A DNA stretch of 54,768 nucleotides, from assembly GCA_963575745.1 (NCBI GenBank), contig CAUYUJ010000215.1, forward strand, positions 62,001-116,768, in the 5' to 3' direction. Position 1 is the first letter of the stretch, and each line of letters begins with the position of its first letter. Source of the DNA: Prorocentrum cordatum. Its lineage: Eukaryota. Made by a program: the position numbers and the translations under genes. Below the pieces are notes generated by a model. The model ran no database searches and was not told the DNA's origin. It saw only the letters and a program-made list of their open reading frames with translations. This document shows, one piece after another, positions 1-45,294 of the stretch.

Positions 1-837
1 GGTATCCAGCTGGCGTCCATCACCGCTGCTTCGACTTCCAGCGGCGCCGCGCCTGATGGCGTTCCACCTCGGAATCCCAGTCGGCCCGTTTCCCCAAACC
101 GCGCGTGTATTTAGGAGTTCTTATTCAGTTTCTCGGGAACTGGGCCTGGCTGGCGGTCTGGCGGCTCCGCTCTCACCGTCGCCGCCCCGTCGCCGCCTCG
201 TCGCGGCTCGTCATTTGGGCGTGGCCAGCGGTCTGGCGGGTCTGCGCTCGCCGTCGCCGCCCCGCCGCCGCCTGCCCTTATTGTTCTTATTGTTCTGCGC
301 GGTCGCGGTTGGTCGCGCACGTCGCGGGTCATTTGGGGCGCGATGAATCGGAGGGAAACGGAACTCGGCGCCGCCAGGTGGCTGGAGGGAGCAGGTGGCG
401 CGGGGGCCTTTGTTTCCCCCCTCCTCTCAACCTCCCGGTGCTGCCGCCCACGTTGTTCCCGTGTCAGCGCGCGCTGTTTCGGATTGCGAACGGCGGCGAT
501 TTCAGCGCCGCGGATCGGCCGCGCTGGCCGCGACAAAAAACACGTTCTGGAGCCGCGATTGGCCAAGGCGGGGCAGCCTTTGACGTGCAGCTGCGAGCCC
601 CGGGAAAAACGCGCACCCACGCATTGGCCCCCTCGTGTAAATAACACCTGGGTCGCATCCGGCCGGTTCAACCCGTTGAGTCTTCAACGGGACGGGGAAG
701 GTTCAGCGAGGTTTCGAGGTGCAACGTCTGATCATTGTTGGCATCGCCACTGGCGTTTGCCCGTCGTGACCCCGCCACAAAGCCAGCCGATGGCCGCTCA
801 ATCTGGGCCGCCCCGCCCAACTGGTTAGAGTCAATAG

Positions 838-1112
838 GAAGAGGCGAGGAGGAGGAGGAGGAGGAGGAGGAGGAGGAAAGGAGGAGGAGGAGGAAAGGAG
901 GAGGAGGAGGGAGGAGGAGGAGGAGGAAAGGAGGAGGAGGAGGAGGAGGAGGGGGAGGAGGAAGAGGACGAGGAGGAGGACGAGGAGGACGAGGGGGACG
1001 AGGAGGACGAGGAGGACGAGGAGGACGAGGAGGACGAGGAGGACGAGGAGGACGAGGAGAAGGAGGAGGATGAGGAGGACGAGGAGGAGGAGGAGGAGCA
1101 GGAGGAGGAGGA
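838..1112. repeat. (GAG/GAC)n trinucleotide low-complexity tract
   Basis: Direct reading: long runs of GAGGAG and GAGGAGGAC. Confidence 0.95.
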
Positions 1113-1926
1113 ATATCAATAATAATAAGACTAATAAGAATAATACTAACAATAGAAAGAAGACGAATAAGACTACTAATAATAATAACACTAATATTAC
1201 GAGGAGTAATAATGATAATCGTAAGAAGAATACTAATATGCAAACACATCATACTACTGCTAGTAATAAGAAACACAAGAATACTACGAATCATAATAAC
1301 AATAATACTACGAATGCTACTAATAACAAGAGTAAGAATACGAATGCGAATCATAATAACACTAAGCATACTAATACTACGAATACTAAGAATAGTAAGA
1401 CTAATACTGATAATATTAATAATATGAAGAATAATAACAAGACGACTAATAATATACTGCGGAATAATACAACTAAGAATGCACATATTATCCATGATAA
1501 TAATAAGAGTGATAATATTCATAATGCTAAGAAGACGGCCAATAATACTAATAACATTACGATTAATATTTACATTCAGAAGGATAATAATAGTAATACT
1601 AAGAATGATCCTACGAAGAATAATATTACTACTATTACTGATACTATTAAGAATACTAATGATATCAGTAATACTACTACTACGGTTATCATTTCTGATA
1701 TTACTAATATTACTAATACTATTAAAAATACTAATAATGCTGATACTACAAGCACTACTAATACTGCTAGTACTACTATTACTAATATTATTACTAATAA
1801 TAATAAGAAGAATACGAAGGCTAAGAATAATAAGAATAATAATACGAAAAAGAAGAATACGAATAAGAAAACTAAACATAATAATAATAACAACAATACT
1901 AACAATACTAAGAAAAATAACAATAC

Positions 1927-1966
<40 letters not shown>

Positions 1967-1970
1967 AATA
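1113..1970. repeat. Degenerate AAT/ACT/AAG trinucleotide tract ending in (GAT)n
   Basis: AT-rich triplet-phased sequence; pure (GAT)n at about 1928-1965; flanked on both sides by GAG tracts. Confidence 0.9.
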
Positions 1971-1974
1971 AAGA

Positions 1975-2196
1975 TAGGAGGGGGAGGACGAGGAGGAGGA
2001 CGAGGAGGAGGAGGATGAGGATGACGAGGAGGAGGAAGGGGGTGACGGCGACGAGGGCAAAGAGGGCAAGGAGGAGGAGGAGGAGGAGGAGGGGCAGGAG
2101 TCAAGGATGTGGAGGAGGAGGAAGAGGAGGAGGAAAAGGAGGAGGAAGGGCGAGGGGGACAGTCCAGGAAGAGAAGGTGAAGGAGGAGGAGGACGA
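1975..2196. repeat. (GAG)n purine-rich tract, 3' flank of the LINE
   Basis: Direct reading. Confidence 0.9.
2181..2196. repeat. Candidate target-site duplication, left copy (AGGAGGAGGAGGACGA)
   Basis: Identical 16-mer at 2181-2196 and 9141-9156, directly abutting both element ends; low complexity weakens the call. Confidence 0.6.
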
Positions 2197-2390
2197 TGAT
2201 GCACGAGCCTCAAGCGGCGCGTGTGACCCGCCGCTCGCGCTCGCCGCGCGCCCCACGCGCGACGGGCTCGCGCTCTCAGCGAGCGCCCGCACGCCACGGC
2301 CCCTCGGGCTCGGCGTGCCGCCAGCGCGACGGCCTCACGGGCCACTCAGGCCGTCGGCCCGTCGCGCCAGGAGGAAGGGGAAGCTGGCCA

Positions 2391-5300
2391 TCACCCCTCA
2401 CTCCTGAGCGGGCTGATGGCCACCGCGACCTTGCCCGAGATCGCTGGGGCGAGCCGCCTCTCCAGGCGCGCCACGGCCAGCAGCCCCTTGGCCGACGCGT
2501 GGCCGCACGGCGGCGCGAAGCTGGAGGCCCTGGCCGCCCCCACGGCTCCGCAGGCGGCGCACGCGACCAGCGGCATGTCGCGGCGCAGCTCGACGTCACG
2601 CTCGGGCTCGATGCGCGCGAGCACGTGCGTGCTGAGCCCCCTGGCGGCCAGCTCGGCGTTGTGCTGGAGCGCCGCTGGCACGATGGTGCCTGGGCACTCG
2701 CCTGCGCGCTCCACCCAGCGGCAGCGGCTGCACCACCGCTTGCCAGGCTCCCCGCGCCAGGCACAGGAGAGCCTGGCGGCCGGCTGCGCCAGCAGCGCCT
2801 TCGGCGCGGGGCGCTGTGGCTTCGCCACGCGGTGGGTGGTGTCCCTGCCGTCCAGCGCGCCGCCCACCGCCGACACCCAGAGCGCGACGCCCTCGACCAG
2901 CTTGTCGGCCATGACGAGCCTCCTGCGATCCTGATGGCGGATCCGTCCTGCCGCCGCCGCCGACTTGGCGGCCTTGTCCGCCATGCCGTTGCCCAGCCAG
3001 TCGCGGTACGAGATCTTCCCGTGGGCGAGCATCGCCCTCTGCGTCTGGTGGGCGGGGACCTTCCTGACCTTCAGCCCGCCGTCGCCCAGGCCGCCGAAGT
3101 CCTCCAGCTTGGCCCAAACCTCCCTCCAGAGGTGGGCCCACGCCGCGCCGTGCGCGGTGGTGCGCCTCGGGCCCAGCTCCAGCAGGCCGCGGTGCACGAA
3201 GCCGCTGTCCACGACGACGGTGACGGGCGGCACCGCGAGCCTGAGGACCATCAGGAGCGCCATGAGCTCGCCGCCGTTGATGTCGACGTGGGGCTCGCAC
3301 AGCATCCCCGACGCCCCGCACAGGAAGGCGTCGGCGTCGGCCTCGAGCGCGATGACGGCCCAGGCGACGCTCGCGTACTGCTCGAAGTCGCCCTCGTACT
3401 GCGAGCCGTCCAGGTAGAGCTCGCCAGAGGGGAAGAAGCCGTCGCTCTCGCCCAGCCAGCAGACGTGCGGCGACGGGGCTGGCTTGACGATGCCAGTCGG
3501 CGCCGCCCACAGCACGCGCTCCAGCAGGCAGCGCACTTCGGGCATGTCCGACCTCGCCGCCAGCTCGCGCATCTTGTCGGGCAGCTTCAGCTCTGGCGGC
3601 CAACCTGCGCAGCTGCCACAGTGCCTGTGGAGCAGGGTGCCGACCTCGCCGCACAGCAAGCACGAGTCGTCAGAGGCCATGCCCTTCTCGTACTTGCGGC
3701 TCTGGCACCACTGGCCGTCGGTGACAACGGACGCGAGATACCCTCGCTCCTTCAGCGTGAGCTTGATGGATGACTGCTTGCCTTCCATGGGATTCGGCCC
3801 ATGGTCCATCTGCACCGTTGCTCGGCCATGGCGTGGCGACGCTGGCCGCTGCCCAGCGGGTCCTGACCTCTCGAGCACGGCAGAAATAGGCGACGTAGAC
3901 CCCTGGCCAGCGGGTCCTGACCTCTCGAGCTCAGCATGTGGCGACGCGAACGCTGGCCAGGGGGTTCTGACTCCGAGCTCAGCAAAGCTTGGCAACGACG
4001 ACCGCTGGACAGCGGGTTCTGACGCCAGCTCTGGGCAGACCGCCACCGCCATCGGAGGGACTGAGGCTGCGTCGGCGACACCAGCAGAGGCCACTGCGGC
4101 GCGCCTGGCAGGCGCCTCGTCGAACTGCTCCTCCGCGCTGATCATGGATCGCGCGTGCCGCTCCGCCTGCTCGTCCCACTCGTCAGGGTCCTGCTCTGCC
4201 AGCCGCTTCATGTTGGCGTGGTAGCGGGCTCTGATGCGCTTCCTGGCCGACCAAGCCGACTCGCAGAGGTCCTGGACCATCTTCAGCCTGGCCACGCCGA
4301 GGTTGTCGATGTCGAGGGAGCGCGCCGTCTCGGTGACTAGCGGCAGCCACGTGCCGTGCGCCAGCAGGTCGGCCACGTAGGAGACGCAGAGCCTCAGCCA
4401 GTGGGCCTTGTTACCATCCTCGTCGAGCGTGGCAAGGTCCTGGATCCAGAAGGTGGTGTAGGCCCTCAGCCGCTTCTCCAGCACCATCCGCGCGTACACA
4501 GCCGCCCTCCTCACAGGATCTTGATCCTTGGCCTCCATGACAGCCAGCTGCCGACCGAAGACGCCCTTGCGGCTGACGGCACCCGAGGAGGTCATCGTGA
4601 TCAAGGGCTCGATGACCCCCCCGCTCGCGAGGTGCTCCAGGCCAGGCCCTTTGCTAACCTCACGCCATTGCCACGCTTGAACTGCTCGCAGGAGAATGCG
4701 CTTGACCGACCACGGCCCCAGCTCGAAAACATGAATGTCGTAGCCCTCGTGCGTGCGCCACAAGGTAGGGCTCAGCACCTGCCAGCCAACTCTCTCGAGC
4801 GTGAGCCTCACCGCGCTGAAGGGGCCCTTGGCCTGGCTCCAGCTCGCAGCCTGGCAGCAAGTGAGGCCGTAGGCGATGATATGCTGCGGGATCCAGCACT
4901 CCCACGCCGCGCGCAGCATCATCAGCACTGGGAGCAGCGTGGCCCTGATCATCGGGTCCAGCATGGGCGTCAGCATAAGCGTCAGCGTGCGCGAGCGACC
5001 GTCCACGCTGGGGGCCACTGCCTTGAACGTCGCCGTGCGCAGCGTGTCCAGCTCCATGGTGGCGCAGCCCGTGACCGCGACGCCGTAGGTCACGCTGGGC
5101 TCGATCCCAGCACGGGCCACCTTGCGCACGGCCTTCTTGCGCCCAGCCCCAGTCTTCAGGATGGCCACGCGGCGCTGGCGTAGCCCTGCTTGAACCAGCT
5201 TCTCCTGCCGCACCTTGCGCACGATACGCTTGCCGCAGGCGAAGTCGACGCCCAGGTTGCGCTCGCCCTTGACGGAGAGCACGCCGAGGGGACGGCGCAG

Positions 5301-8300
5301 CCGAGCGGCCAGGGCGTGCCGGCCTGCTGGGAGGTTGGAGAGCGCCCTCGACTTCTTGACCGCCACGTTGAGGTCGACGTCCAGCAGCAGCATCTTGAGC
5401 TCGAACGCTGCCTCTGCCACCTCCTTAGTCACGCGCACGAGCCCGCCAACTCGGTGCAGCATGAGGTCGTCCACGACGACGGCCAGAGAAACTGTCGGGT
5501 GCTGTGCGACCAGGCGATCCAGCGGCCCGATCAGAATAAGCTTCAGCAGCGCCGTCGCGAAGCCATCGCCTGGGAGGATCGACTGCCTGGCCTCGATCAC
5601 GCTCGAGGCCGCGCTGCCCATGCAGAGGACCCGAGGCGCGCAGTAGAGCTCCAGCGTCAGCTTGAGCTGCCAGAGGGGAAACCCCGTGGCGATGGCGGCG
5701 TCCAGCAGCCAGTGGTGGCGCACCTGCTCGAACGCCTTGAGCAGGTCGAGCAGCACCGCCACGGCCACCCACGACTCGGCGTCCCCGCAGTCGGCACCGC
5801 GCTGCGTGGCCCACTCGCCGATCGCGGCCTGGTGCCACACCGCACGCTCGCAGCTGCGGCCAGCAGCTGCCCACCAGTAGGGGCGGTCGTTGTCTTGCTC
5901 CCACTTGCGCGCGACGCCTCGGCGCAGCCGCGCCTGCACCCTCGCCAGCACCATGATGACGGCGATGGGCCTGACGCCGCCGAGCCGCTTCTGGATGAAG
6001 CCGATCTTGGTTGTCATGAGCGGCCAGGCTGCTTCGCGCTCGACGGCCACCAGGATGTCGATCAGCACCTCCAGCGCTTCGTCGCACAGCTCGTCCAGCT
6101 GCCGCGGCCGAACGGAGCAGAAGGACATGCCCGTGCTGCCCTTGAACGAGCGCAGCACCTTGCGGAGCTCGGGGACCGTGGGCCTGGGCGGCCTCTCGCC
6201 GAGGTCGGCTGGCCACTGCAGCCGCGCTTGCTCGCAGGTAGTCCTCCACCAGCGGCTCCACTCGACCTCCAGCGCCGTGACCTGCTGCCCCAGGTCCATG
6301 GGCTCGAACAGCTGCTGGTGGTCGTCGGCGTCCTGGTCGTCCTCGGCGTCGCCGTGCGGGCTGGAGTCGAACCCGACGGGCAGGCGGGACACCGCATGTA
6401 GACCACCTCCACCGCCTTCGGCCTGCTTCTCGACCCAGTGCTGGAACTGGACGGTGCGCTGGGCCATGTCCTTCTCAGCCATGTCGAGCGCCACGGCTTG
6501 CGCCCCAGCGTGCAACTGCAGCAGCTCAGCGGGGGTCAGCGCCGCCAAGCGCAAGTTGCTAAGCAGCGACCACCATGCTACAGCTTGGGGCAACACCTGA
6601 GGGCAGGACAGAACCTCGCCAGCATCAGGTGCCGCCTTCACTGTGGCTGGGGCTCTGTCTAGCAGCCTACGCGCACCTCGAAGAGCGTCGAGACGCGCGT
6701 TGGGCTGCTCCACGTCGGCGATGTCCCGCAGCAGGCTGGCAGCACGGTGCATCCATGTCGCCTCAGCCGAGACCCGCGGCCAGCGCGCGCCACTCACGGG
6801 CAGCCGCCGAAGCCAACGTGGCTCCACGGGGCGAGCTCGCCCCTTGTGCTTGACCCTGTCCTCCTCGACCTGGTAGATGTCGATCCACTCGTCCTCGGCT
6901 GCGTCGAGGAACCTCTGCCATGCGGCGGTGAGGTTACCCTTGACGTCGGTGCTACCCTTGACCTGATCCCGCACACACTCCTCCAAGTGGCACGATCTTC
7001 CCTCGCTCGCGGGCCCCGCAACGGGCGGCGGTGAGGTCACACGGGAAACGTCCAGGCACTCCGACTCCTGCGCGCCTGCCAGCACGCTCTGCAGCTCGTG
7101 GCCGATCTCGGCCCAGCGGTCGCCGTGGGCGACGCGAGCACATCCAGCAGGCCGCTGGACAGGGAAGGGCTTGGGCACTGGCACGACCCGAACCCACGGC
7201 CGTTGGCGACACGCCTCCAGCTCCAGGATGACTGGCTTGTGCGGGTAGACGGGCGACCCGCTGACCACGCTGATGCTGGTCACCTTGAGCCCACGCGAGA
7301 CGATGAACATATCGATCGTCCGCTTCGACTGCGCGCAGGTGGGCTCCAGCGTGTCGACGACGACCGCATCGAAGAGCCGCAGCACGCCTGACTTGGCCAG
7401 CTCCTGCTTGGTACAGTTGAAGTCGCCCCCGACCACGTATGGGCGACCGTACTCGCGCAGCCTGCAGGCCAGGTCGCGCAGCATCTGGGCGTTGAACGCG
7501 TTGACGCCGACGCCTGACTGCAGGTAGATGTTGGCCATCACGATGCCGCCTCGCAGCAGCCCCGAGTGATGGAGCACTTGCACGCGCCCTTCTTGAAGCA
7601 CAGAAGGCCGCGACCCCAGCATGGTGGCAAGGCCATGCTCGCTGCGCACACAAGTGAGCAGCCCCCCAGTTGCCAGCCCTCCAGCCAGCGATGGCACCGC
7701 GGCAGCACCACATGCTCGAAGCCCTCGACGGCGAAGCTCCCCTTCAGCGTCCGCCGTGCGCGCTTCTCCCAGCCGCGTCTCTTGGAACAAAATTGCGTCG
7801 CAGCTCGTCAGCTCCTCGACCAGGCACTTGTCGATGTTCGAATACGCATTCATATTCAACGTGACGAAGCGCCAGGAGCTGCTGCGGCTAAAGCTTCCGC
7901 CGCTTGGCCTCCATCGCGGCGACGTGCTGTTGCTGCAGGTGGGCCTGTAACTCCTCGAGGAACTTCCGCTTCTCCGCGTCCGTGCCGATGAAGTCCTCCG
8001 CCGCGGCCTTGAAGGTGTCGCCCGTCGCGAAACCCAGGGGGTCGCCCTCCAGGTCCATGTCCTCGGACTCGCCCACGGGCTTCTCGGCGGCATCGTCGCC
8101 GGCCCCAGCGGCGGCGGCAGCGCGGCCTGCAGGTGCGGCTCCTCCTCCACATCCTCCAGCAGCGACTGGTTCAGGTGGCGCGGCAAGCGCGGACACACCT
8201 GCCAGCAGCGCTTGGAGAGGTCCCAGCAAGGACTCTGGAAGCTGGACGCCCTGGCTCTCCGAAGAGGTTCCCACGAGCGTCCTGAGCTTCTCCACGTTGC

Positions 8301-9119
8301 CGAGGATGCCGCTGAGATCTGCTCCTCCAGCAGCTGGCTTGGGCTCGGCGCCGTTGGCGAGCGCGGCCTTCGCCTTGGAGACGGCCTCGTCCAGCTCGAG
8401 CTGCAGCTGCGTGACCTTCTCCTTCTGTTGGAACGCTGCCTGCAGCGCCTCCGTAACCATCTTCTGCTTCTTGTTGTAGTCCGCCTTGGCCTGCTGGAGC
8501 CGCTTGCAGGCCTCGTCGGCTGCGACCTGCGCAGACTTGACGAACTTGACGTCGGACAGCACGCCCAGCTGCTGCTGCAGCAAGAAGCGCGACTGGCGCA
8601 GGCTGTGCTTGTCGCTGCCGGCCAGCGTGACGGACAGCAGCTCGAAGTCGTCGTCACTGAGGGCCATGAAGCGGTCGCGGGCCTCGGGCGAGAGCTTGGG
8701 CGGTTGCGCCCCCGAGCCCCCGCCACCTCCACGCTTCGGGTTGGCCATCGTATGCCAAGGGCGGGAGTCTGCACCTCCGCCCGCCCACGCCCCACGCGCT
8801 GGAGGAGGGCCAGAACGAGGAGCAGGTACACGATTGGTCGGCCTGCAGCCCGTGCACCCCGCTTGCCGACACTTCGCGCGCCAGCCCAGGTTCTTGTAGT
8901 GGCAGCGGTCGCAACGCCAACTCGTCCCCTGAACTGCGTCACGCGCTGCACCAGCGCCAGCGCCGCCGCCGCCACGAGGCTGAGGAGCCATGCCGCTGCG
9001 GCTCGGCACTGGACTGCCGAGCTCCTCACCTGGGGCGGACCAGGCCGAAAAGCTGAAAGACTTGCTGCGGCAGCAGCTTCCGATTTGCCTGGAGGCTGAA
9101 CAGCCTCCCAGGAAGTCAT
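2391..9119 (-). CDS. LINE ORF2 polyprotein: APE endonuclease (~7225-7870), reverse transcriptase (~5240-6150), CCHC zinc finger (~3610-3665), RNase H (~2960-3425), C-terminal Cys/His cluster. Recognisable domains begin near 7870; true start uncertain
   Basis: APE: FVTLNMN, FQETR, NIYL, GGDFN, TIDMF, PHKPV. RT: KRLGGVRPIAV, LLDLLKAFE, SILPGDGFAT, VVDD, NLGVDF. CLLCGEVGTLLHRHC. RNase H: YLDGS, GELMA, VVDSGFV, KVPAHQ, GNGMADKAAK. Confidence 0.93.
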   Translation of the reverse strand: MTSWEAVQPPGKSEAAAAASLSAFRPGPPQVRSSAVQCRAAAAWLLSLVAAAALALVQRVTQFRGRVGVATAATTRTWAGARSVGKRGARAAGRPIVYLLLVLALLQRVGRGRAEVQTPALGIRWPTRSVEVAGARGRNRPSSRPRPATASWPSVTTTSSCCPSRWPAATSTACASRASCCSSSWACCPTSSSSSLRRSQPTRPASGSSRPRRTTTRSRRWLRRRCRQRSNRRRRSRSCSSSWTRPSPRRRPRSPTAPSPSQLLEEQISAASSATWRSSGRSWEPLRRARASSFQSPCWDLSKRCWQVCPRLPRHLNQSLLEDVEEEPHLQAALPPPLGPATMPPRSPWASPRTWTWRATPWVSRRATPSRPRRRTSSARTRRSGSSSRSYRPTCSNSTSPRWRPSGGSFSRSSSWRFVTLNMNAYSNIDKCLVEELTSCDAILFQETRLGEARTADAEGELRRRGLRACGAAAVPSLAGGLATGGLLTCVRSEHGLATMLGSRPSVLQEGRVQVLHHSGLLRGGIVMANIYLQSGVGVNAFNAQMLRDLACRLREYGRPYVVGGDFNCTKQELAKSGVLRLFDAVVVDTLEPTCAQSKRTIDMFIVSRGLKVTSISVVSGSPVYPHKPVILELEACRQRPWVRVVPVPKPFPVQRPAGCARVAHGDRWAEIGHELQSVLAGAQESECLDVSRVTSPPPVAGPASEGRSCHLEECVRDQVKGSTDVKGNLTAAWQRFLDAAEDEWIDIYQVEEDRVKHKGRARPVEPRWLRRLPVSGARWPRVSAEATWMHRAASLLRDIADVEQPNARLDALRGARRLLDRAPATVKAAPDAGEVLSCPQVLPQAVAWWSLLSNLRLAALTPAELLQLHAGAQAVALDMAEKDMAQRTVQFQHWVEKQAEGGGGGLHAVSRLPVGFDSSPHGDAEDDQDADDHQQLFEPMDLGQQVTALEVEWSRWWRTTCEQARLQWPADLGERPPRPTVPELRKVLRSFKGSTGMSFCSVRPRQLDELCDEALEVLIDILVAVEREAAWPLMTTKIGFIQKRLGGVRPIAVIMVLARVQARLRRGVARKWEQDNDRPYWWAAAGRSCERAVWHQAAIGEWATQRGADCGDAESWVAVAVLLDLLKAFEQVRHHWLLDAAIATGFPLWQLKLTLELYCAPRVLCMGSAASSVIEARQSILPGDGFATALLKLILIGPLDRLVAQHPTVSLAVVVDDLMLHRVGGLVRVTKEVAEAAFELKMLLLDVDLNVAVKKSRALSNLPAGRHALAARLRRPLGVLSVKGERNLGVDFACGKRIVRKVRQEKLVQAGLRQRRVAILKTGAGRKKAVRKVARAGIEPSVTYGVAVTGCATMELDTLRTATFKAVAPSVDGRSRTLTLMLTPMLDPMIRATLLPVLMMLRAAWECWIPQHIIAYGLTCCQAASWSQAKGPFSAVRLTLERVGWQVLSPTLWRTHEGYDIHVFELGPWSVKRILLRAVQAWQWREVSKGPGLEHLASGGVIEPLITMTSSGAVSRKGVFGRQLAVMEAKDQDPVRRAAVYARMVLEKRLRAYTTFWIQDLATLDEDGNKAHWLRLCVSYVADLLAHGTWLPLVTETARSLDIDNLGVARLKMVQDLCESAWSARKRIRARYHANMKRLAEQDPDEWDEQAERHARSMISAEEQFDEAPARRAAVASAGVADAASVPPMAVAVCPELASEPAVQRSSLPSFAELGVRTPWPAFASPHAELERSGPAGQGSTSPISAVLERSGPAGQRPASPRHGRATVQMDHGPNPMEGKQSSIKLTLKERGYLASVVTDGQWCQSRKYEKGMASDDSCLLCGEVGTLLHRHCGSCAGWPPELKLPDKMRELAARSDMPEVRCLLERVLWAAPTGIVKPAPSPHVCWLGESDGFFPSGELYLDGSQYEGDFEQYASVAWAVIALEADADAFLCGASGMLCEPHVDINGGELMALLMVLRLAVPPVTVVVDSGFVHRGLLELGPRRTTAHGAAWAHLWREVWAKLEDFGGLGDGGLKVRKVPAHQTQRAMLAHGKISYRDWLGNGMADKAAKSAAAAGRIRHQDRRRLVMADKLVEGVALWVSAVGGALDGRDTTHRVAKPQRPAPKALLAQPAARLSCAWRGEPGKRWCSRCRWVERAGECPGTIVPAALQHNAELAARGLSTHVLARIEPERDVELRRDMPLVACAACGAVGAARASSFAPPCGHASAKGLLAVARLERRLAPAISGKVAVAISPLRSEG
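3845..4030. repeat. About 54-bp tandem repeat (3-4 degenerate copies) within ORF2
   Basis: CCAGCGGGTCCTGACCTCTCGAGC occurs twice 54 bp apart (LERSGPAGQ twice in the protein), with further degenerate copies. Confidence 0.75.
7888..8991 (-). CDS. LINE ORF1 (367 aa from ATG 8991): RanBP2-type zinc finger, coiled coil, C-terminal basic NLS-like motif
   Basis: WRCDRCHYKNLGWRAKCRQAGC fits W-x-C-x2-C-x3-N-x6-C-x(2-4)-C; heptad-like A/Q/K/E-rich helix; ends AKRRKL; GC3-rich codons; position upstream of the APE domain. Confidence 0.85.
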   Translation of the reverse strand: MAPQPRGGGGAGAGAARDAVQGTSWRCDRCHYKNLGWRAKCRQAGCTGCRPTNRVPAPRSGPPPARGAWAGGGADSRPWHTMANPKRGGGGGSGAQPPKLSPEARDRFMALSDDDFELLSVTLAGSDKHSLRQSRFLLQQQLGVLSDVKFVKSAQVAADEACKRLQQAKADYNKKQKMVTEALQAAFQQKEKVTQLQLELDEAVSKAKAALANGAEPKPAAGGADLSGILGNVEKLRTLVGTSSESQGVQLPESLLGPLQALLAGVSALAAPPEPVAAGGCGGGAAPAGRAAAAAGAGDDAAEKPVGESEDMDLEGDPLGFATGDTFKAAAEDFIGTDAEKRKFLEELQAHLQQQHVAAMEAKRRKL

Positions 9120-9141
9120 CTTGAGCCAAAATGGCTACGGA
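9120..9141 (-). other. Perfect 22-nt dinoflagellate spliced leader (DinoSL) TCCGTAGCCATTTTGGCTCAAG
   Basis: The plus strand reads CTTGAGCCAAAATGGCTACGGA; its reverse complement matches DCCGTAGCCATTTTGGCTCAAG 22/22 and is followed directly by ATG. Confidence 0.97.
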
Positions 9142-9355
9142 GGAGGAGGAGGACGAGGAGGAGGCGGAGGAGGAGGAGGAGGAGGAGGAGGAGGAGGAGC
9201 AGGAGAAGTTGGAGGAGGATGAGGAGGAGGGGAGGGAGTGTCGAGAAGGAGGAGGAGGAGGAGGAGGAGGAGGAGGAGGAGGAGGAGGAGGAGGAGGAGG
9301 AGGAGGAGGAGGAGGAGGAGGAGGAGCAAGAGGATGAGGGAGGAGGAGAGGAGGA
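9141..9355. repeat. (GAG)n tract, 5' flank of the LINE; includes the right TSD copy at 9141-9156
   Basis: Direct reading. Confidence 0.9.
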
Positions 9356-22024: not shown

Positions 22025-24670
22025 TCACACTGCTGGCACACCCCCCTTGGCGGGCTGCTTCTTGATGCCCGGGAGGGAGGACTCGTTGTACAGGTAGGTC
22101 TTGAGGGGCTCAAACACACGGCCCTGGACACCCTCGGACAGCTTCTCGAGCGCCTTCCTCTCCCTATTGAGGTTCCTCTTCTTCTCGGACGCCTGCATGT
22201 CGCACGTCGCGTAGTACATGACCATGCCCTCCGTCACGGTCGCCCTGCCGTCCTCCAAGTAGCCCTTCAATTCTGCCATCACCTCCGTATTGTCAGTGAT
22301 CGAGAACATCTCGAATTGCTCCGTAGTCGTGCGGTGCATGGCCTCGCAAATGGCGAGGTTGGCGTTAAACTTCTTCACGTCGAAGCTCGCGCGCAGGATC
22401 GTGGTCGTAGCTCGCTCTTTGATCGCTGTCCAATCCGAGTCCTTGTCAAGCCCATCGTGCCACTTGGAACCGTTGTCTGTGCCGCCGCAGAGCTTCTGGA
22501 TGTCGCAGTTGTCGAACTGGTTCGCGAGCCCTGCCAACAAACTGGTAGCCACTGCGTTGCGAAGCGATTGTGCCTCCTCCACGTAGGCAGTCACGACGGG
22601 GGCGATGCCCTCGAGCGGGAAGTACGTCACGCTCTCGACGCTTGCTGCCTGCCAGGCGGTGAGGGCGCTGACGAACGCCAGCGACTTGACGAGGTCAGCG
22701 TCCAGCTCCACCCTGCAGGCCGCGTCCTTGGCCAACCTCGCCCACCCCTCGTACGAGTTCAGCAGCGCCAGTAGCTTGCTCACGACGCCCTTCGCCACCA
22801 ACACGTCGTCGCAGGCGAGCTTGCCCAGCACGGCCGAAATCTTCTCGAGCAAGTCTGCGGCAGACCTCACGCCATCGTTCCCCACGTTCTTCACGTTCTT
22901 GGCCACGTACCCGAGAAGCGAGATTGCCAGCCCGCCCAATACCTCAACACCTCTGGGGACGTCGGCGAACTTGCCAGACACCGCCATGTAGTCCTGGCAT
23001 TTCTGGGAGTACTTGGAAAGGTCCAGGGTGTCGAAGTCCGTAGTCTTCGAGAGCTGCTCCATCTCTGTAACGAATGCGGTCCCAAACGACAAATCAGAAG
23101 CACAGCCCAGCGCACGCTGAGCATTGGAGATGGCGGCCTTGATGGAAACAGCGAGGTTCGGGAATACACCAACGCACTCAGTCAAGATACCGAGCTTGAC
23201 CTTCACCTCGGAAACGATGCCCTCTGTCGTCAACGACTGCTCGATACAAAGCGCATCGATGTCGGTGATCATGGCTGCGATGCGGGTCTGGAGCGCGCCG
23301 CGCAACGGCACGACACCTCCGCCGCGGCACCCCAGCTCCCAAGACGGCAAGTTCTTGACGATGTCCGCCACGACGTCGTCGCCACAACCCTTCTGGATAT
23401 CGGAGTTGGCTTCATTGATTTTCGGCTGGACCCCGAGCGAACCACCCTTCACCGTGATGTCATCCCAGGACTGTTTCAGCTTAGCCGACTCCTGGATGAT
23501 GGAGACCAGGGATTCCTGGAGCCCAGTGAGAGTCTTGTTCTTGACAGCCGTCTTGATGTTGGCGACCTCCTGTATGTGAATGGTATCAGTAGGGTCCAGT
23601 AAGCACTGCAACACATTCACGATGCCGATGGCATCCTGGAACGCCTCGATGGTGGCGTCGGGGATGTCCAGGCCGAAGGCGTCGAGCTTCTCCAAGATCG
23701 CCTGCGACGCGTCGCCGAACAGGCGCTCAGATGCCGAACACGAAGCCACCAAGGCAGGCAAAACGTATTGTCCAAAGTACTGCGTGAACAAGGTGGCCAA
23801 CTCCTCAGGTGATCCCTCGATCAGCGCCAATTGCGGAGACGTCGGCTGGAAGTCATGCTCAGCGTCGTCATGTTGGCCCTCCGTGGATCCACCCTCGCAA
23901 TCGGCTTTGAGGACGAGCGGCAAGATGTGCTCGAGCGTTTGGCTGATACGCTGCTTGCTCACGTGCTTGTCAGCCGTCAGGCGAGACATGGTGTTCTTGA
24001 GGAGTGCGATCTTGATGGAGGTCGGGTACTCGAAGTCGCTGCCAATGGTCGCGATCCTCGCCTTGAGAGCCTCTGCATCTGCCGTCTTCTGAATGGCATC
24101 CACTGTCAAGTCGACTGCCGCCTCAACCTTATCGACGTGGGCCTTGAGGTTCTTGTACTGCGGAGTCGTTCGATCTGGAAATTTGTGCAGTAAGTCCTTC
24201 GCCCAGCGCAGGTCGGTCTTGTACGGGCCACCCTCCATGATGGCTGACACGTTGAGCTTCTCCTGGTACTTGTTGACCTTCTTGGCCCACTGATCCTTGC
24301 TGGTGACGTCGATCGGACTGGCGGAGAGCAGCGAGGGCGTTGGGCCTGCCTCGAGCGTCTTGGAGGGCGTGACGGACATGGCACGCTCTGGCCTGCGAGA
24401 TGCCGCCAGCGCCGCGATCGCACTGGCGCCTGAGGTGGCGGGGCCGCGGCTGGGGCCCGCCTCCGGATGCGCACCAACGGACTCCACCTCGGCGGGCTCC
24501 GAAGACTGGCTCCCGTCCGCTGCCTCGTCGTCCGCATCATCGTCCGCCTCGGCCGCGCCCTCGCCCTCGAGGTCCTCGGGGACACTGCCGTGGGCCAGGT
24601 TCTCGAAGCGGCCGAGGTCGAACTTCACGTTGCGCAGCTTGGAGAGGAGATTCGCCTTCAGCTTCTTGGC
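22025..24670 (-). CDS. Exon 2 of a ~1107-aa uncharacterised protein (acidic/disordered linker then a long helical region)
   Basis: Stop-free complex reading frame with GC3-biased codons; AG|GCC acceptor at 24671/24670 is in frame with exon 1. Confidence 0.82.
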   Translation of the reverse strand, partial: AKKLKANLLSKLRNVKFDLGRFENLAHGSVPEDLEGEGAAEADDDADDEAADGSQSSEPAEVESVGAHPEAGPSRGPATSGASAIAALAASRRPERAMSVTPSKTLEAGPTPSLLSASPIDVTSKDQWAKKVNKYQEKLNVSAIMEGGPYKTDLRWAKDLLHKFPDRTTPQYKNLKAHVDKVEAAVDLTVDAIQKTADAEALKARIATIGSDFEYPTSIKIALLKNTMSRLTADKHVSKQRISQTLEHILPLVLKADCEGGSTEGQHDDAEHDFQPTSPQLALIEGSPEELATLFTQYFGQYVLPALVASCSASERLFGDASQAILEKLDAFGLDIPDATIEAFQDAIGIVNVLQCLLDPTDTIHIQEVANIKTAVKNKTLTGLQESLVSIIQESAKLKQSWDDITVKGGSLGVQPKINEANSDIQKGCGDDVVADIVKNLPSWELGCRGGGVVPLRGALQTRIAAMITDIDALCIEQSLTTEGIVSEVKVKLGILTECVGVFPNLAVSIKAAISNAQRALGCASDLSFGTAFVTEMEQLSKTTDFDTLDLSKYSQKCQDYMAVSGKFADVPRGVEVLGGLAISLLGYVAKNVKNVGNDGVRSAADLLEKISAVLGKLACDDVLVAKGVVSKLLALLNSYEGWARLAKDAACRVELDADLVKSLAFVSALTAWQAASVESVTYFPLEGIAPVVTAYVEEAQSLRNAVATSLLAGLANQFDNCDIQKLCGGTDNGSKWHDGLDKDSDWTAIKERATTTILRASFDVKKFNANLAICEAMHRTTTEQFEMFSITDNTEVMAELKGYLEDGRATVTEGMVMYYATCDMQASEKKRNLNRERKALEKLSEGVQGRVFEPLKTYLYNESSLPGIKKQPAKGGVPAV

Positions 24671-36974: not shown

Positions 36975-38065
36975 TCATGAAACTTCAGGCGGCTCAGAGT
37001 CGCAACCATCATCGGTTGGCGACTCCTTCTCAAATAAAGCATCGGAGCCTGGAACACGATGCAACGATCTCCTGCCATCCACGCGGCCTGCGTGATCATG
37101 GCGTAGTAGCTGTCGCAAGGCATCGAGCTCATCGTGCATCTCGAAATTGTGCATCCAATGCATCATGTAGCCGAGTGGTCGCCCTTGTCCTTTCCGGCGG
37201 CCACGATACGATACTTTTGTGAGCTTGCAATTGGCATGAACGAGGCACTCGCATTCAAAGAAGCCGCCTTTCTTGGCATACCATCGTATCACCCCCATCT
37301 CAGGAACCCGAAGGACGACATCTGCAGCTCCCCTCGGCGCGTGCGCTAGACCTCCTGGAGGATGGGGTGGGGCTGGGACGGGATCACAGTCGCCACCTTC
37401 GCCGCCGCCCTCCTCACTGGCGGCGGCCTTGGAGCCGCCGTCGGAAACCTTGCCGTCAGTGCTCGAGCTGCCGCCATCGCTGGAGTCGGACGAGTGCGTG
37501 CTGTCGTTGTCGTTGCTGCTGCTGCTGCTGCTGTCGAGGGAGCCGCTGCCGCTGGAAGACGATGAACTGTCTTCAGCCGAAGACCCCCTGGTCCAGTCGG
37601 AGCCCACTGCATCGCCGCCTGGGTCGGAACTGCCGTCGGCGCTCGGGCCATCCATAGAGATAGCTGCACGACGCTCGTGTCCAAGAACATGCCACGACGA
37701 CGTCCTGTCAGACGTGTCCTGCACGGCAGGATCCCACACTGTGGTTAACGCTCCATCTCTGATCGTTTCCAAACGGAGATACTTGGGCGTAAAATCTGCA
37801 ACAAACCTATTATCAGCTACGACCGAGCATACGAACAACCGCCAGGTGTCAGACTTATCCATTGGAGAAGCTGCTTGATACGAATCAAAGTACATATGCA
37901 TGCTCTCGACGACAATCTGCCCCATGAACCTGATGCGACCCCCGTCGTCGCCAAACTCGGCCTCGAACTCTGTATTCCCAATCAAATCAACCTGGTGGTA
38001 CTGCGGCTCAAACGGAGACAATTTGCATTTACCAATGTGGAACCATAAGAATCGATGCTCATCGC
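36975..38065 (-). CDS. Transposase-like gene, exon 4 (acidic/Ser-rich linker and C-terminal Cys/His domain)
   Basis: Complex protein-like sequence FLWFHIG...ECECLVHANC...GRPLGYMMHW...EPPEVS*. Confidence 0.72.
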
Positions 38066-38446
38066 CTCGTGACGTCAAGCTTGAACGTGCGTGATTTTCA
38101 AAGGCGCTGCTCGGACGTCGGCCCCAGGGCGAAAACTGCCCCTCCCCCTCCCCCTCTGAAGTCCTCTCCCTCCTTCCGTTTGCCGACCGTCTCGTCTTAC
38201 CCCCCCTCCTCCTCCGCGCCCCTGCCCGCCCCTTTTCAGTTGCGCCCCCGCAGTCTACGGGGCGGGCGGGGGGGGGGGGTGGAGGGAAAGGTCGAGGCGG
38301 ACGCGGGGAAGGCATTCGGAAGGCCAGGAGGAGACGACTGGGCACGGGGAAGGCACGGTTTTTTTCTGGGTGCCTACTCCAAGAAAACGTGTTTCGAGCA
38401 GCGCCCCTAAAACCACGCGCGCCCAGCACACGTCCACTGATGGCTC
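38066..38446 (-). other. Putative in-frame, stop-free intron with internal inverted repeats (donor position uncertain by 1-5 codons)
   Basis: Low-complexity translation; imperfect IR at 38087-38113 and 38395-38420; AG|GC acceptor; phase-1 GA or GT donors. Confidence 0.6.
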
Positions 38447-39690
38447 CTGACTGGTCCGTGCCCACGAGGCCGAGGACGAGCTTGCCCTGGATGAGGTTCT
38501 TCCGCGCCTGCGAATGCGGAGGACACAGACGACGAAGGCACGCATTCATCACAAGAACATGTTTCGATACGTGGCCATTCTCACCAGCGGCACAGACACA
38601 CATGCCAGCACGACAACATTTCGAATCTCTATGCTGAGTGAAGTCGCGGTCGTGATCTCCATCGTGTTGCACGGGGGCAGACATCCCGTGACAGGTCTGG
38701 TCGAGCAGCTCCATGACTTTCTGGATGCCTGGTGCTTTTCCCGAAGCGCTGCCTGCTCCCATGGCTCGACCAATCGATGTAGACTGCCAACATAAGCTCA
38801 CGTGAGGATGGGATTCAGAGGCCTGCTGCTGCAAGGGCACCGCAAATACTTGGTCCAAGACGTGCTCTGCGCCGATGGAGCTGCAAGCGCGATCCGCGCT
38901 TGCCTGGCCGAGGTCGGGGCTGTTCGTGTACGTGGCCAGCTGCTGCGCGGAGGCCGAGTCGATGGCGGCGTCGATGCGGTAGCGCTCGCGGCAGCGCCTG
39001 CCAGAGTCGTGGATATCCGACCATTTGACCGTGGACTCTCGAATCACATCGTTCAAGGACTCCCTGGTGGTGCGATCGGAATCTGTGGACTGGATCACAT
39101 GTTGGTTGGCGTCGATGGCTGCCCTCGCCAACGCCGCCTGGCGCTGGCGGCGGCCCGCCCGATCCACACGAGAAGGTTTCATGCCCAGGGGATGACGTGA
39201 TCCTGCCACTCGAGCATCGTCGGCCGCGGCTGCCCTCTCTCGCAGACGCTGGAACTCCTGGTCGGAGATCTCCGCGTAGGAGGCGGCCAGCGCAGACAAG
39301 TCCCTGCCTGGCCCGCGCACCCCTGCAGTCTGCTCAGAAACCCACACCCTGTAGGGGCCCATATTCCTCTTCTTCGCGCCGTCGCGGGGGGGCGGGTCAG
39401 AGGTCTCCTCGGGCCGCTGACGAAACCGTTCGTGGCGCGAAGCATCTGGGCGCCCCCACAATTTGTTTTTCTTTCTGTGCTGGGAACCAATCCACTCGGC
39501 ATTCAGATTTTCCCTGGACAGTGCTGGCGCCTGGGTCGACATAATATTCAATATGCGTCGTATAGAAGCGTGGGAAACCTCGATGGCGGCTGTGTCAAGC
39601 TCTGCAAGCAACGCAATAAGTCTGAGCATGTGTTGGTGGTCGGTCTGGGATTCTGCATTCGTAACTTCTGAAAGGAATCCAACCAACCCT
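38447..39690 (-). CDS. Transposase-like gene, exon 3 (putative catalytic E, HMG-box-like segment, Cys cluster)
   Basis: DTAAIEVSHASIRR; KRNMGPYRVWVSEQ...LAASYAEISDQEFQRLRERA; CCRAGMCVC. Confidence 0.75.
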
Positions 39691-41211: not shown

Positions 41212-41869
41212 CTGGTGGCCAACGGAAACAGCATCCGCGACCCAACATCAATCCTGCAAGTCGCCCACGCTGGGATCACAGGTTCCGCTACCACCTCGCA
41301 AACAAAAAAAGAGGAGGGCGGGGGACGCAAGGAGGAGGACACGGAGGAGGACGTGTGCGATGATGCAGGCGAGGCGGAGGGCGGCAGTGAGAAGGCAGGG
41401 GGCAAGGCAGGAAGGGGCGAGGGGGAGAGGGGGAGGGCGGGTAAAAGGGGCGGGGGGGTAAGAAGACATTGAGTGACTGACACGCGGTTGTTGAGCAATG
41501 ATGTATTAAAAGGGCCCCCCCATTTAATTGATGTAGGCATGCTCACGTTGTGCCATATGGGAGCCGACGGTCTGCGCGCAGCCCCAGCCCACCCCCTGGG
41601 AGCCGACGGCCCCGCGCACAGTCCCAACCGACCCCCATGGGAGCCGACGGTCCCGCACGCAGCCCCAGTCGACTCTTTGAGGGCCGACGTATCCGCGCAC
41701 AGTCCCAGCCGACCCCCGTGGGAGCCGACGGTCCACGCGCAGTCCCAGAAGGCCCCCTGGGAACAGACGGCCCGCCCGCAGTCCCAGCCGACCCCCATAT
41801 GTTCAGTTTGTTTATGTGGTTTCAGGGCCACTTGCAGGATTGATGTTGTTTTTTCCTTCACTTGCGCAC
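41212..41869 (-). other. GT-AG intron with 24-bp subterminal inverted repeats and an internal ~40-bp tandem array (introner-like)
   Basis: GAG|GT donor and CCAG|G acceptor; IR at 41243-41266 and 41825-41848 (23/24); GGGAGCCGACGG units at about 41555-41795. Confidence 0.75.
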
Positions 41870-43762
41870 CTCGTCGGGGCCCTTGTCGGCGCCGCCAAAC
41901 GCGACGCCGCCCTCGAAGCCGCCGTCGCCCTCGTAGTGCTTGGGCAACACGCGGGTCGGATCGATGGGGATCTTGGCGCCGTAAGCGCGGCAGAATCGCA
42001 TGTATGTTGGTTTGAGGAGGCCGAAGAAATGAAGCAGCCCAACTGTGTCAAACGCATCCTCGTTCTTGATCCAATTTCTGCCTGGGAAGGACTTCGGTAT
42101 ACAGGGCACCAGAGCGAACACAAATGATGACTTCATCCGGTTGCGGCATTGATTTTCTGATTTACAGCACTGGCACGACCGCTCATAATGCACCAACCCA
42201 TCACCAACGGAATGCACCAAACTAAGAATGACATCCCGCCTCCGTATATTCTGTTTGATCGATCTGGGCAGGAATACGTCCAAAACAGATATGATGTCAT
42301 CTCTGGAAGTGCGGTCCTGCAGCCTGTCTGTGTTGAAAGTGAAAAAGCCGTGGCTGGCGAGCACGTCTCTCATAGCTGCGCGGAATGTGTTCAGGGAACC
42401 TTGCATGCGCATGCTCAATACACAAGATATCATGGACGTCGTAATATCAGAAGACATATGTTTAAGGATGTGCTCTCTCATGGCGGCCGCCCTGTGTAAC
42501 TGACACTTGAAAGCAAAATAATGGTGGCGATATCCTACGTTTGCGATGGCACGTTCTGCTTTCGCAACAGCTTTGTCGGCATCATTTGTAGCAACCCTGC
42601 ACGTATACTCAAAGAAGTGATCTACTTCGTGGAGCGGTAACTTGGACATTTCAATGGCATCAGCGTAAACCTCACCTGTTGTTCTAGACAAACATTGCAG
42701 CCACTGCGTTGTTTTAAAACAAATCGACGTGTACAAACCCTTGTTATAAACCAGAACTCCATATTTCCACTCTGTGTTCAACAACTTTGTTGGGGCGGTC
42801 TGGTGCTGAGTGCGTCCAGCCAGCGGCAGAGGTTCGATCTCGATGTCTTCAACAGCTTGGTACGCCCTGGCGTGAGACTGCTGTGCAATGAGAGACTCCT
42901 TGATCTTGACAGGCATGGGCGTCTCGTCGCACCGTGGGTGCTCGACCAAGTATATACAACGACCGCCTGTGGACTTGACAGCTTCACATACTTGCTTGAT
43001 CATGTTGATCGCATCGCGCCGTTCCACAATCACGGCTGCTGTAGCGACACGTCTCTGAATAATTGGGTACATGTCCACAGACACACTATGCGCCCTGGCA
43101 CCTGCAGAATGAGAGGTCACGTGCTTCCGCTTGAACAAATCTTCCGCCACATTGTGCTGCGTCGTTGGGAATATATCTGTGCGTTCGTTGTGTGACTCGT
43201 GCACTCTTGCCACGCAATCAATTGCTTTGGGAAGAATGTGACCAGATACGCGAAGTGCCCGAGTGTAGACGCTCATCATATATGTGGAACGCTCATTGTC
43301 TGTCAGTGGCTCGGGTGGGAGGGCAGCTAAAACAAGGGCCTGTCGATCACCAGATAATTCCTGCATGTCGTAATCGTTCGCCTCCAAAAAACTGAGCAAC
43401 GGTTGCATGACTTCTTTGGGTCTGAGTGTTCGCCGCCGCGGCAAAAGAGCATGGGGGGCAGCGTGGGCCATCTGAACGTCCTCACTGCGCGGCACATACG
43501 GAACTATGGCGCCATCACCGTCGGCCATCTCCGCCTCGAGGTGATCACTGGCGCCGTCGCCCTGGGGACCCTGCTCGACAGAAGAAGCGTGCCACGAACT
43601 CTCGGTGCCGCTGATGCCCTGGCCCTCCTCTCGTTGATCGGCCAGGTCCGCCCAGTGAGCAGGGACATCGGGCGAACCCGAACTGGACTCACCAGCTTGG
43701 CGCTCAGAACTCAAGGCGGCCCAGCCGATCATCACCACAAAACTCGCAGTGAACAGCTTCAT
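41870..43762 (-). CDS. Transposase-like gene, exon 1: DDE-type core with CxxH motif (start codon uncertain)
   Basis: YLVEHPRCDETP (D1), RVATNDADKAVAKAE (D2), FKCQLH (CxxH), FPGRNW. Confidence 0.7.
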
Positions 43763-43803
43763 TCCTCTAGACGAAAACCGTCGGGAAGAAACACGGCTAT
43801 GGC

Positions 43804-43825
43804 TTTGAGCCAGACTGGTTACGGA
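43804..43825 (-). other. Degenerate DinoSL relic TCCGTAACCAGTCTGGCTCAAA
   Basis: 18/22 match to the SL, same strand, 41 nt upstream of ATG 43762. Confidence 0.6.
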
Positions 43826-45294
43826 TCCCGTTCTCGTGCTTTCCTTCTTGCCCCTTCCTCCCCTTCCCTTGGGCCTCCCTCCCTCCAGCCCTTCCCCTCT
43901 CTCCCTCTCGTCCACACCTCCTCTCCCTTTCCCTCGCCGCTCTCCCCGCCCCTCCACTTTCCAGTCGCACACGGGACTGGGTGATTCTCCCCCCGAACTG
44001 CTGCAAGGGGGCAGGGTGCGGTTGCTTGTTGGACGCTGCGTTCGGGTCGAAACCCAGGCGGGAACTAGGAGGATGACGAGAGGCGGGAGGAAGGGGTCGA
44101 AGGAACAGAGTGCGTGGCCATTCGATGACACCGCAATTCGAGTCTTGCACGTTCCTGGCAGGTGGCGGGACAGATTCGACAGAAGAAGTCTCAAGCGAAA
44201 CACCCAGCCCGCCCTAAATTTTAGAGCAGTGGCGAGGCACCAGTCCTGGCAAGTGGCGTTCAGAGTCATGTTTTGCGCGCGTGTGCGCTACTGACCGTAG
44301 GATCGGGGTCGAAACACAAACACTCTGCATCCTGAATAAGAAACGCATGGAGCTCTCATATTTCATACACGTGATCATTTAATTGATGGGGCCACGTCTG
44401 CCGAATCGTGAGTGTCTTTTTTACGTAGTGGCATCATATGTTTCAACCATGCTTTTTCTATGATTTGGGGTTTGGGTGGTTTCCACGAGTTTACAGGCCA
44501 GACGAAGCACAAATGTATGTAGGTAGGTAGGTAGGTAGGTAGGTAGGTAGGTATGTGTATGTATGTGCATGTATGTGCATGTATGTGCATGTATGTGTAC
44601 GTTTATATATACACACAAACAGACAGACCGGGCCCCCTCCCGGGGCGTCCTCCACCTCGCTTACATCTGGTGTGCGCTCCCGGTACCGCGCTTCCCGGCC
44701 TCCCGGGGAGCCCCCACAATGCCCAAAGACAGTCCAAGACGACCCCAAGAAGCCCCCACAACGTAAGAGAATTGCCCAAGACGCTACCAAGCAACCCAGA
44801 ATAGCTTTCGGGCGGCTCTCTAGGCTCCCAGGAGACCCCCAAGAGACCCCCAAGAGAGCTCCGAGAGGCCTCCGATAATTGTCTGTGTGTTTGCAGGTTG
44901 TTGGCCTTCTCACCATTTCAGACTTCCAACGCTCCAGGACGGCCGAAGAAGCCCCCAAGACGGCCCCAAGACTGGCCAAAGAGGCCCCGAGACTGCCGAA
45001 GAGGCGCCCAGAACAGCTCCAGACCACCCAAGAACAGGCCCCAGATGAGCCCAAGAGCGGGAGCAGGAGGCCGCCAGAGACCTCGAAGAGGACTCCAGGA
45101 CCCCCCAGAGGCCCCCAACACACCCCAGACCCTTGAGAGGCTCTTACAAAATCCCCGACGAGGCCCCCAAAACAGCCCAAGAGAGCTTCGAGAGCCGTCC
45201 CGAGAGAGCCCGAAGAGGGTATACACATTGATTGTCAGTGGTTTTTGTCGACGCTGTTCGCCTTCTCACGTTTTCCTCCTTCCAACGCTCCAAG

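Follow-up and report, generated by a model that had tools for sequence, protein, structure and literature searches.

Dinoflagellate genomes have been shaped by large-scale retroposition of mRNAs tagged with the spliced leader (SL), and dinoflagellate retrogenes with DNA-encoded SL relics were reportedly described by Slamovits and Keeling in 2008. This study concerns a window of 54,768 nt from the dinoflagellate Prorocentrum cordatum (contig CAUYUJ010000215.1, positions 62,001 to 116,768; the window is the whole stretch of DNA analyzed), in which a long interspersed nuclear element (LINE) at positions 2197-9141 starts with the complete host SL. Two groups of retrotransposons are of immediate relevance, namely, I) CRE1/2, SLACS, CZAR, and NeSL-1, which have SL RNA genes as their insertion sites and encode an endonuclease of the restriction-like type, and II) Kibi, Koshi, Waldo, Mino, and Dong, which are microsatellite-targeting LINEs.

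In the published work on dinoflagellates, a DNA-encoded SL at a 5' end marks the reverse transcription of a trans-spliced mRNA (PMC5585692, PMC12014239). The Gene Ontology class 'RNA-dependent DNA replication' was found to be enriched among SL-bearing retrogenes (Song et al. 2017, PMC5585692), and the reverse transcriptase behind such retrogenes is called unknown, with long terminal repeat (LTR) elements being favored (PMC6050394, PMC5585692). LINEs of the Suessiales are described as ancient remnants (PMC8045281). For the LINEs of Symbiodinium, which include SymbioLINE-Dnmt, several subfamilies were judged active (de Mendoza et al. 2018, PMC5890265); in the main text of that paper, the term 'spliced leader' occurs 0 times and no 5' SL is described. 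The trypanosomatid L1Tc/ingi elements have their own 77-nt internal promoter, Pr77, and unspliced transcripts (PMC1874656, PMC8190864). In a literature search, with subscription journals and supplements outside its reach, no paper was found that describes a LINE with the dinoflagellate SL at its start.

Positions 2197-9141 are an intact non-LTR retrotransposon with two open reading frames (ORFs) and an endonuclease of the apurinic/apyrimidinic endonuclease (APE) type, as the element comprises ORF1 and a three-domain ORF2 and has neither LTRs nor inverted ends. It is oriented along the minus strand, a point on which the preliminary description of this DNA was silent. Judged from the DNA, the explanation that is considered likely as a whole is that the element belongs to a dinoflagellate-specific APE-type LINE lineage that lacks a 5' end of its own and copies SL-trans-spliced mRNA.

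The published dinoflagellate SL is DCCGTAGCCATTTTGGCTCAAG (PMC7245778). The SL 22-mer searched for, TCCGTAGCCATTTTGGCTCAAG, has a single match in the window, at 9141-9120 of the minus strand and with 0 mismatches. No second SL site was found in the window with up to 3 mismatches allowed (expectation from 100 shuffles, 0), and a 15-nt SL relic pattern with up to 2 mismatches gave no site window-wide besides 9141-9120. Read along the minus strand, an imperfect (CTC/TCC)n array is followed by the SL and then by ATGACTTCC, i.e., an ATG and not a GT-type intron lies directly 3' of the SL. The preliminary description had stated that the element starts with a perfect SL, that a microsatellite lies upstream, and that SL-RNA intron sequence occurs at neither end. 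The exact 22-mer, with none expected by chance, bears out the first statement, and the ATG after the SL, the TCC repeats on the 3' side, and an empty Rfam result agree with the others. The features at the two ends of the element are as follows:

9142-9355, minus strand: upstream (TCC/CTC)n array, the putative insertion target and a possible polypyrimidine tract of a trans-splice acceptor (from the sequence and Tandem Repeats Finder)
9142-9156, minus strand: candidate target-site duplication, 5' copy, a direct repeat of 15-16 bp that adjoins the SL on the outside; ambiguous as it lies within the microsatellite
9120-9141, minus strand: exact 22-nt dinoflagellate SL, the first bases of the element (single match with 0 mismatches; the identical 22-mer occurs at 33-54 of metagenome contig L001, described below)
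9117-9119, minus strand: AUG1, which adjoins the SL and opens the ORF2 frame (2242 codons without a stop); L001 has the same layout
2182-2196, minus strand: 3' copy of the 15-16 bp direct repeat; its bases also occur in other copies and may be the element's own (TCC)n tail
1976-2181, minus strand: downstream imperfect (TCC)n array, the putative remainder of the target microsatellite (from the sequence and Tandem Repeats Finder)

The comparison that carries most of the argument is with L001, a metagenome contig of 2185 bp with coding sequence for a diverged ORF1 and for the beginning of ORF2. Its order is (CTC)7CCCCTCTTTCTC, the exact 22-nt SL (33-54), an ATG (55), a 5' untranslated region (UTR) of 113 nt, ORF1, and ORF2, and the frame of the ATG at 55 is open over 55..2184. 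Between the window element and L001, ORF1 is identical at 233/360 amino acids (aa; 65%) and the N-terminus of ORF2 at 227/288 aa, whereas four-fold sites are identical at 72/140 and 84/138 positions, respectively, i.e., at 51-61%. The 5' UTRs are unalignable (74 matches vs 70.8 +/- 2.7 in shuffles), and the SL plus ATG is identical at 25/25 positions. As four-fold sites have diverged to this extent and the UTRs are randomized, a passively inherited 22-mer should have decayed; by our own arithmetic, the chance of 22 unchanged bases at an identity of ~0.6 per site is near 1e-5. That the 22 bases are unchanged despite the divergence indicates that the SL is either renewed at each transposition or strongly selected, and renewal by trans-splicing would explain the conserved SL without further assumptions.

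Selection is the core of the first rival explanation, in which the SL-like 22-mer is a selected internal part of the element or its transcription start, no trans-splicing of its RNA takes place, and the (TCC)n is the element's own sequence or promoter. A pyrimidine tract does lie upstream in both elements, and a genomic SL taken alone is indistinguishable from a spliced one. However, the two upstream tracts differ in both sequence and length, the repeat type continues past the 3' end of the window element, and the 15-16 bp repeat brackets the SL, such that the tract behaves as a target; in addition, 22 perfect bases beside a randomized UTR would need strong selection on every base. This explanation is regarded as quite unlikely.

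The flanks speak to a second rival, namely, site-specific insertion beside SL genes or SL relics in the manner of CRE/SLACS/CZAR and NeSL, with the SL being target DNA. Tandem Repeats Finder identified 9139-9355 as (GGA)n and 1976-2146 as a less regular (AGG)n, so that one microsatellite type is present on both sides of the element, and the 3' flank consists of TCC repeats. While SL-gene targeting has a precedent in other SL-using organisms, SL-gene sequence is absent from both flanks and an Rfam scan of the whole window returned no RNA gene. Moreover, the SL is confined in full to one side of the element, the microsatellite of the 5' flank resumes at the 3' flank, the direct repeat lies outside the SL, and the endonuclease is N-terminal and of the APE type. 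If the 15-16 bp repeat is a target-site duplication, then the SL lies inside the inserted DNA and SL-targeting is excluded. This rival, extremely unlikely in our assessment, can be considered largely refuted for the locus.

A pure pyrimidine tract lies directly before the SL in both elements (32/32 pyrimidines in L001), which is unusual. Of the other distinct genomic SL sites on IMG/VR contigs, 0/134 have a pyrimidine content of 85% or more in the preceding 30 bases, and 2/134 have an ATG directly after the SL. Among 30-nt windows outside the element, 1.2% and 3.0% reach at least 90% pyrimidine or purine, respectively. Beyond the downstream (AGG)n array and adjoining it, an AT-rich minisatellite block (1118-1966; GC content ~0.30) ends in a perfect (TGA)13, so the LINE sits within a larger low-complexity island.

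For the explanation held likely, copying of SL-trans-spliced mRNA, the following sequence of events is proposed: I) the host 22-nt SL would be trans-spliced onto the element mRNA at the AG immediately before the first ATG; II) target-primed reverse transcription would reach the 5' end of this mRNA, and each full-length DNA copy would thus begin with the SL; III) copies would insert in, or persist only in, pyrimidine-rich (TCC)n tracts; IV) the pyrimidine tract and the genomic SL, which ends in AG, would together rebuild a 3' splice-acceptor-like site; and V) a read-through transcript of the copy would be trans-spliced again at the same place, regaining exactly one SL. The SL would provide the cap and leader for translation, ORF1 would start at the next strong AUG, and ORF2 would be reached from upstream, i.e., from AUG1, through a +1 shift where ORF1 stops, or through reinitiation. 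The earlier proposal, in which the RNA of the element received the SL by trans-splicing and was then copied completely, with the SL defining the 5' end, probably holds, given the L001 junction, the divergence between the two elements, the flanks, the direct repeat that brackets the SL, and the APE-type endonuclease. Two findings that had been named in advance as contrary to it, SL-gene sequence at the 3' flank and an assembly chimera, were looked for; TCC repeats lie at the 3' flank, and the same junction on the independent contig L001 contradicts a chimera.

Several observations weigh against this explanation. The first three SL bases (TCC) are identical to the flanking repeat unit, which leaves 19-21 of the 22 bases unambiguously SL, and 5' junctions were read in two elements (n=2; the window and L001). 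The candidate target-site duplication sits inside a microsatellite, and its 3' copy is common to copies in other runs, so it may be a (TCC)n tail priming on (GGA)n and not a duplication. The (GGA/TCC)n type is frequent in the window, with 23 exact arrays of at least 5 units. The 134 SL sites used as a control are mostly AT-rich viral-bin DNA and not dinoflagellate nuclear retrogenes. Furthermore, among the matches listed from other runs (X1, X2, and X3), one X1 contig and one X2 contig stop matching at 8961 and continue with 83 and 63 bases of other sequence, which means that the final 180 bases are not the same in all close copies, and two X3 contigs and one X1 contig match only from 9087 towards the SL, i.e., the SL-proximal 33 bases also occur joined to something else. 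The latter may be subfamily variants or another sequence carrying the same first 33 bases; a 30-nt continuation sequence of the other-run contigs was not found in the window.

These contigs are what speaks for a chimeric retrocopy, in which the 5' 33-180 bases would stem from a template switch onto a host SL-bearing mRNA, as in U6/L1 chimeras. A chimeric origin of the 5' 180 bases had been considered at first from the divergence at 8961 and was made unlikely by L001. In this diverged element, the SL is likewise joined to an ATG, and its UTR, similar in length, again leaves AUG1 in frame with ORF2; two independent switches are unlikely to have produced one and the same architecture. In addition, the 30 bases past 8961 hold an in-frame ATG into ORF1, which by our reading fits an indel-rich variant, and a one-off chimera is very unlikely. 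The L001 junction also disposes of an assembly artefact that joined an SL-bearing read or contig to the LINE. Repeats do flank the junction, and no listed contig piece spans 9141/9142 (9131-9355 was skipped as a repeat), yet the independent metagenome contig shows the same junction, and such an artefact is scarcely credible.

Contig pieces that are 88-100% identical over 2181-9050 were found in 4/4 runs from 4 studies (290, 580, 96, and 36 pieces), which indicates that the element family is multi-copy. Their identity classes range from <90% to >99%, and one differing 3' flank occurs among the matches listed; the details of these pieces rest on 32/1012 listed, and one of the 4 runs may be the source sample. 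At the protein level, 4118 proteins were matched at E<=0.001 in a HMMER scan, 304 of them at E<=1e-30 and most of them ~30% identical, and the named near relatives come from P. cordatum. A protein word search with ORF1 found 2 homologues, P0003 (ORF1 of L001) and P0004; with residues 1-900 of the long frame it found 1 homologue, low-complexity words having probably hampered the search, and it found no short proteins matching the SL/UTR/zinc-finger part. In a tblastn search of ORF1 and ORF2 against 120 loci, L001 was the sole match. A 22-nt stretch of the 5' UTR had 0 matches in a metagenome scan, family searches in viral contigs and genome contigs gave no match, and neither did the SL+ATG pattern in genome contigs.

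The internal anatomy of the element is as follows:

8992-9119, minus strand: 5' UTR relative to ORF1, which separates the SL from ORF1 by 128 nt, with AUG1 as the sole ATG before the ORF1 ATG
7888-8991, minus strand: ORF1, 367 aa plus stop; a Cys-rich W-x-C...C motif lies close to the N-terminus, a long helix is predicted, and the C-terminal part is conserved (homologues P0003 and P0004)
7854-7887, minus strand: spacer from the ORF1 stop (CTT TAG C) to the first in-frame Met of ORF2, encoding the start of the endonuclease, W416...N422 (family alignment)
2391-7853, minus strand: ORF2, 1820 codons if Met423 of the long frame is taken as the first; upstream of Met423 the frame stays open as far as 9119
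7200-7874, minus strand: APE-type (exo/endonuclease/phosphatase) endonuclease domain (Pfam PF03372; N-terminal bound from the family alignment)
5343-5996, minus strand: reverse transcriptase core (Pfam RVT_1, below the cut-off in the window protein)
2955-3293, minus strand: RNase H-like domain (Pfam RNase_H, below the cut-off in the window protein)
2197-2390, minus strand: 3' UTR, terminating in ...CATCATCG, with no poly(A) run; shared up to 2181-2184 by contigs of three other runs

A single open frame of 2242 codons covers 2391-9119 of the minus strand, and its first ~420 residues resemble out-of-frame Ser/Arg/Pro-rich text. Exo_endo_phos (PF03372) scored 28.4 bits against a cut-off of 24.5 over residues 428-623 of P0001, and the bound at 7200 is an approximate extension past the end of this match (residue 623, ~7251). 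RVT_1 scored 19.1 bits in the window protein, under the cut-off of 29.6, and exceeds the cut-off in 8/16 relatives scanned; the family profile matches reverse transcriptases of R2 retrotransposons in the Protein Data Bank (PDB) at E = 9e-6 to 4e-5, and phmmer of the single ORF2 protein against the PDB gave only chance interleukin matches. RNase_H scored 19.8 bits in the window protein, under the cut-off of 25.8, and exceeds it in P0008 and P0102. Between the reverse transcriptase and RNase H regions, ORF2 carries an in-frame 54-nt tandem duplication (3835-3936; 85% identical). No LTRs or inverted repeats were found at the element ends (0 inverted pairs), where the only shared repeats are the flanking microsatellite, and no second copy of the element was found inside the window. 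For ORF1, a Pfam search with E up to 10 returned no family and a protein atlas no usable match, and its AlphaFold model is of low confidence (mean predicted local distance difference test, pLDDT, 53.8), with a helix at 125-212. The label 'RanBP2-like zinc finger' for ORF1 is our assumption from the consensus of such fingers, and no Pfam match backs it.

The start of ORF2 was assessed in an alignment of the window element, L001, and 54 relatives (n=56), the last being those of 107 BLASTP matches that begin at most 15 residues from the query start, with the remainder excluded. N422, just before Met423, is invariant in 56/56 sequences, the W416 position is W or L in 46/56, and the QE motif of the endonuclease is aligned across the set; the strand before Met423 is conserved, and the Met423 position itself is variable. 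No in-frame AUG occurs in the spacer between ORF1 and ORF2, although two relatives, P0006 and P0043, do carry a Met upstream of the conserved endonuclease strand. As the invariant N422 precedes Met423, ORF2 cannot start at the first Met after the ORF1 stop, and by sequence comparison its start must lie upstream; the routes are initiation at the SL-adjacent AUG1, a +1 shift where ORF1 ends, and reinitiation. The preliminary term 'intact' thus applies in that the two-ORF element is complete; it does not extend to a usable AUG of ORF2's own just upstream of the endonuclease domain.

The UTR lengths, 128 nt in the window and 113 nt in L001, each equal 2 mod 3, which places AUG1 in the ORF2 frame in both elements. 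Through ORF1, the ORF2 frame has 0 stops in 368 (window) and 371 (L001) codons, and the stop-free overlap from AUG1 to the ORF2 start spans 7854-9119 of the window (minus strand) and 55-1314 of L001. Synonymous shuffles of ORF1 gave 3.7 and 3.3 expected stops, with zero stops in 0.7% and 0.9% of them, and the +1 frame of ORF2 itself holds 39 stops in 1820 codons (~7.9 per 368), its longest open run being 227 codons. The argument from this open overlap is weakened by the other alternative frame, which is also stop-poor against synonymous shuffles (3 vs 11.0; 6 vs 10.6), and by the +2 frame of ORF2, in which 350-358 codons in a row lack a stop by chance. The ORF1 stop contexts, CTT TAG C in the window and GGG TAG C in L001, would permit the ribosome to enter the ORF2 frame by a +1 shift. 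Three distant relatives (P0013, P0017, and P0102) carry GEA(A/S/L)(N/H)PGP in long N-terminal extensions before the endonuclease, which resembles the 2A ribosome-skipping motif of some LINEs.

A more far-reaching combination is put forward tentatively and is, as a whole, rather unlikely: the lineage would be a promoter-less, trans-splicing-dependent LINE with a giant AUG1-started ORF2 frame, and at the same time a retrogene engine. The AUG1 frame would overprint all of ORF1 and run into ORF2, such that the polymerase would have the SL as its entire 5' UTR, while leaky scanning would give ORF1. By copying SL-capped mRNA to its very end, the lineage could be the engine of SL-tagged retrogenes.

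Two further observations were made in and beyond the window. On viral-bin contigs (L002-L120, IMG/VR, many labelled GVMAG), 119 stretches contain the exact 21-nt SL core, in many cases behind a near-identical AT-rich motif of ~40 nt and before differing gene starts, often several per contig. From their arrangement, these look like genes of giant viruses in which a promoter-like motif is immediately followed by an encoded host leader; a search of titles and abstracts for viral SL sites returned nothing obviously on topic. Within the window, ORFs of 867, 903, and 803 aa lie at 22025-24628, 36975-39686, and 41858-44269 (all minus strand), in the same orientation as the LINE; their protein sequences have an ordinary appearance, and one of the three terminates in a Cys/His-rich motif. 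A Pfam scan of the other large minus-strand ORFs of the window gave no match, and the three may represent another mobile or virus-derived unit, or host genes.

If the explanation considered likely is correct, an intact multi-copy LINE that starts with the complete SL would show that non-LTR machinery copies trans-spliced mRNA to its 5' end. This machinery would leave a signature, i.e., a pyrimidine-repeat target, no poly(A), and an ATG directly after the SL, and because this signature is recognizable, the question of the retrogene engine is directly testable at retrogene junctions. The lineage would also show how a LINE can dispense with an internal promoter, in contrast to Pr77, where long units are transcribed and processed by trans-splicing. 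Lastly, ORF1 nested in an SL-initiated ORF2 frame would, if true, be an unusual translation strategy for a LINE.

Compared with the described systems, the present element shares with CRE1/2, SLACS, CZAR, and NeSL-1 that it is a non-LTR retrotransposon physically tied to SL sequence. It differs from them in its N-terminal APE domain (no search was aimed at a restriction-like motif), in that the complete SL forms the first bases of the element itself, and in its location within a microsatellite. As for Kibi, Koshi, Waldo, Mino, and Dong, the insertion lies inside a simple repeat, with repeat on both sides (two junctions seen), but here the repeat may double as the pyrimidine tract of a splice acceptor. 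Like L1Tc/ingi, the LINE resides in a host in which essentially all mRNAs are trans-spliced; unlike them, its lineage shows no conserved 5' sequence besides the host SL and ATG. With the Symbiodinium LINEs (PMC5890265), it has in common that it is a two-ORF dinoflagellate element with a reverse transcriptase in ORF2, and it is set apart from SymbioLINE-Dnmt, by the description given there, in that its ORF1 has no DNA methyltransferase (DNMT) domain in Pfam. As in the SL-tagged retrogenes of dinoflagellates, the SL is DNA-encoded at the 5' end of the copied unit. Unlike in those retrogenes, however, the SL-bearing unit is an autonomous retrotransposon, found in two diverged lineages, with one complete SL and no truncated relic, at a pyrimidine microsatellite site and without poly(A).

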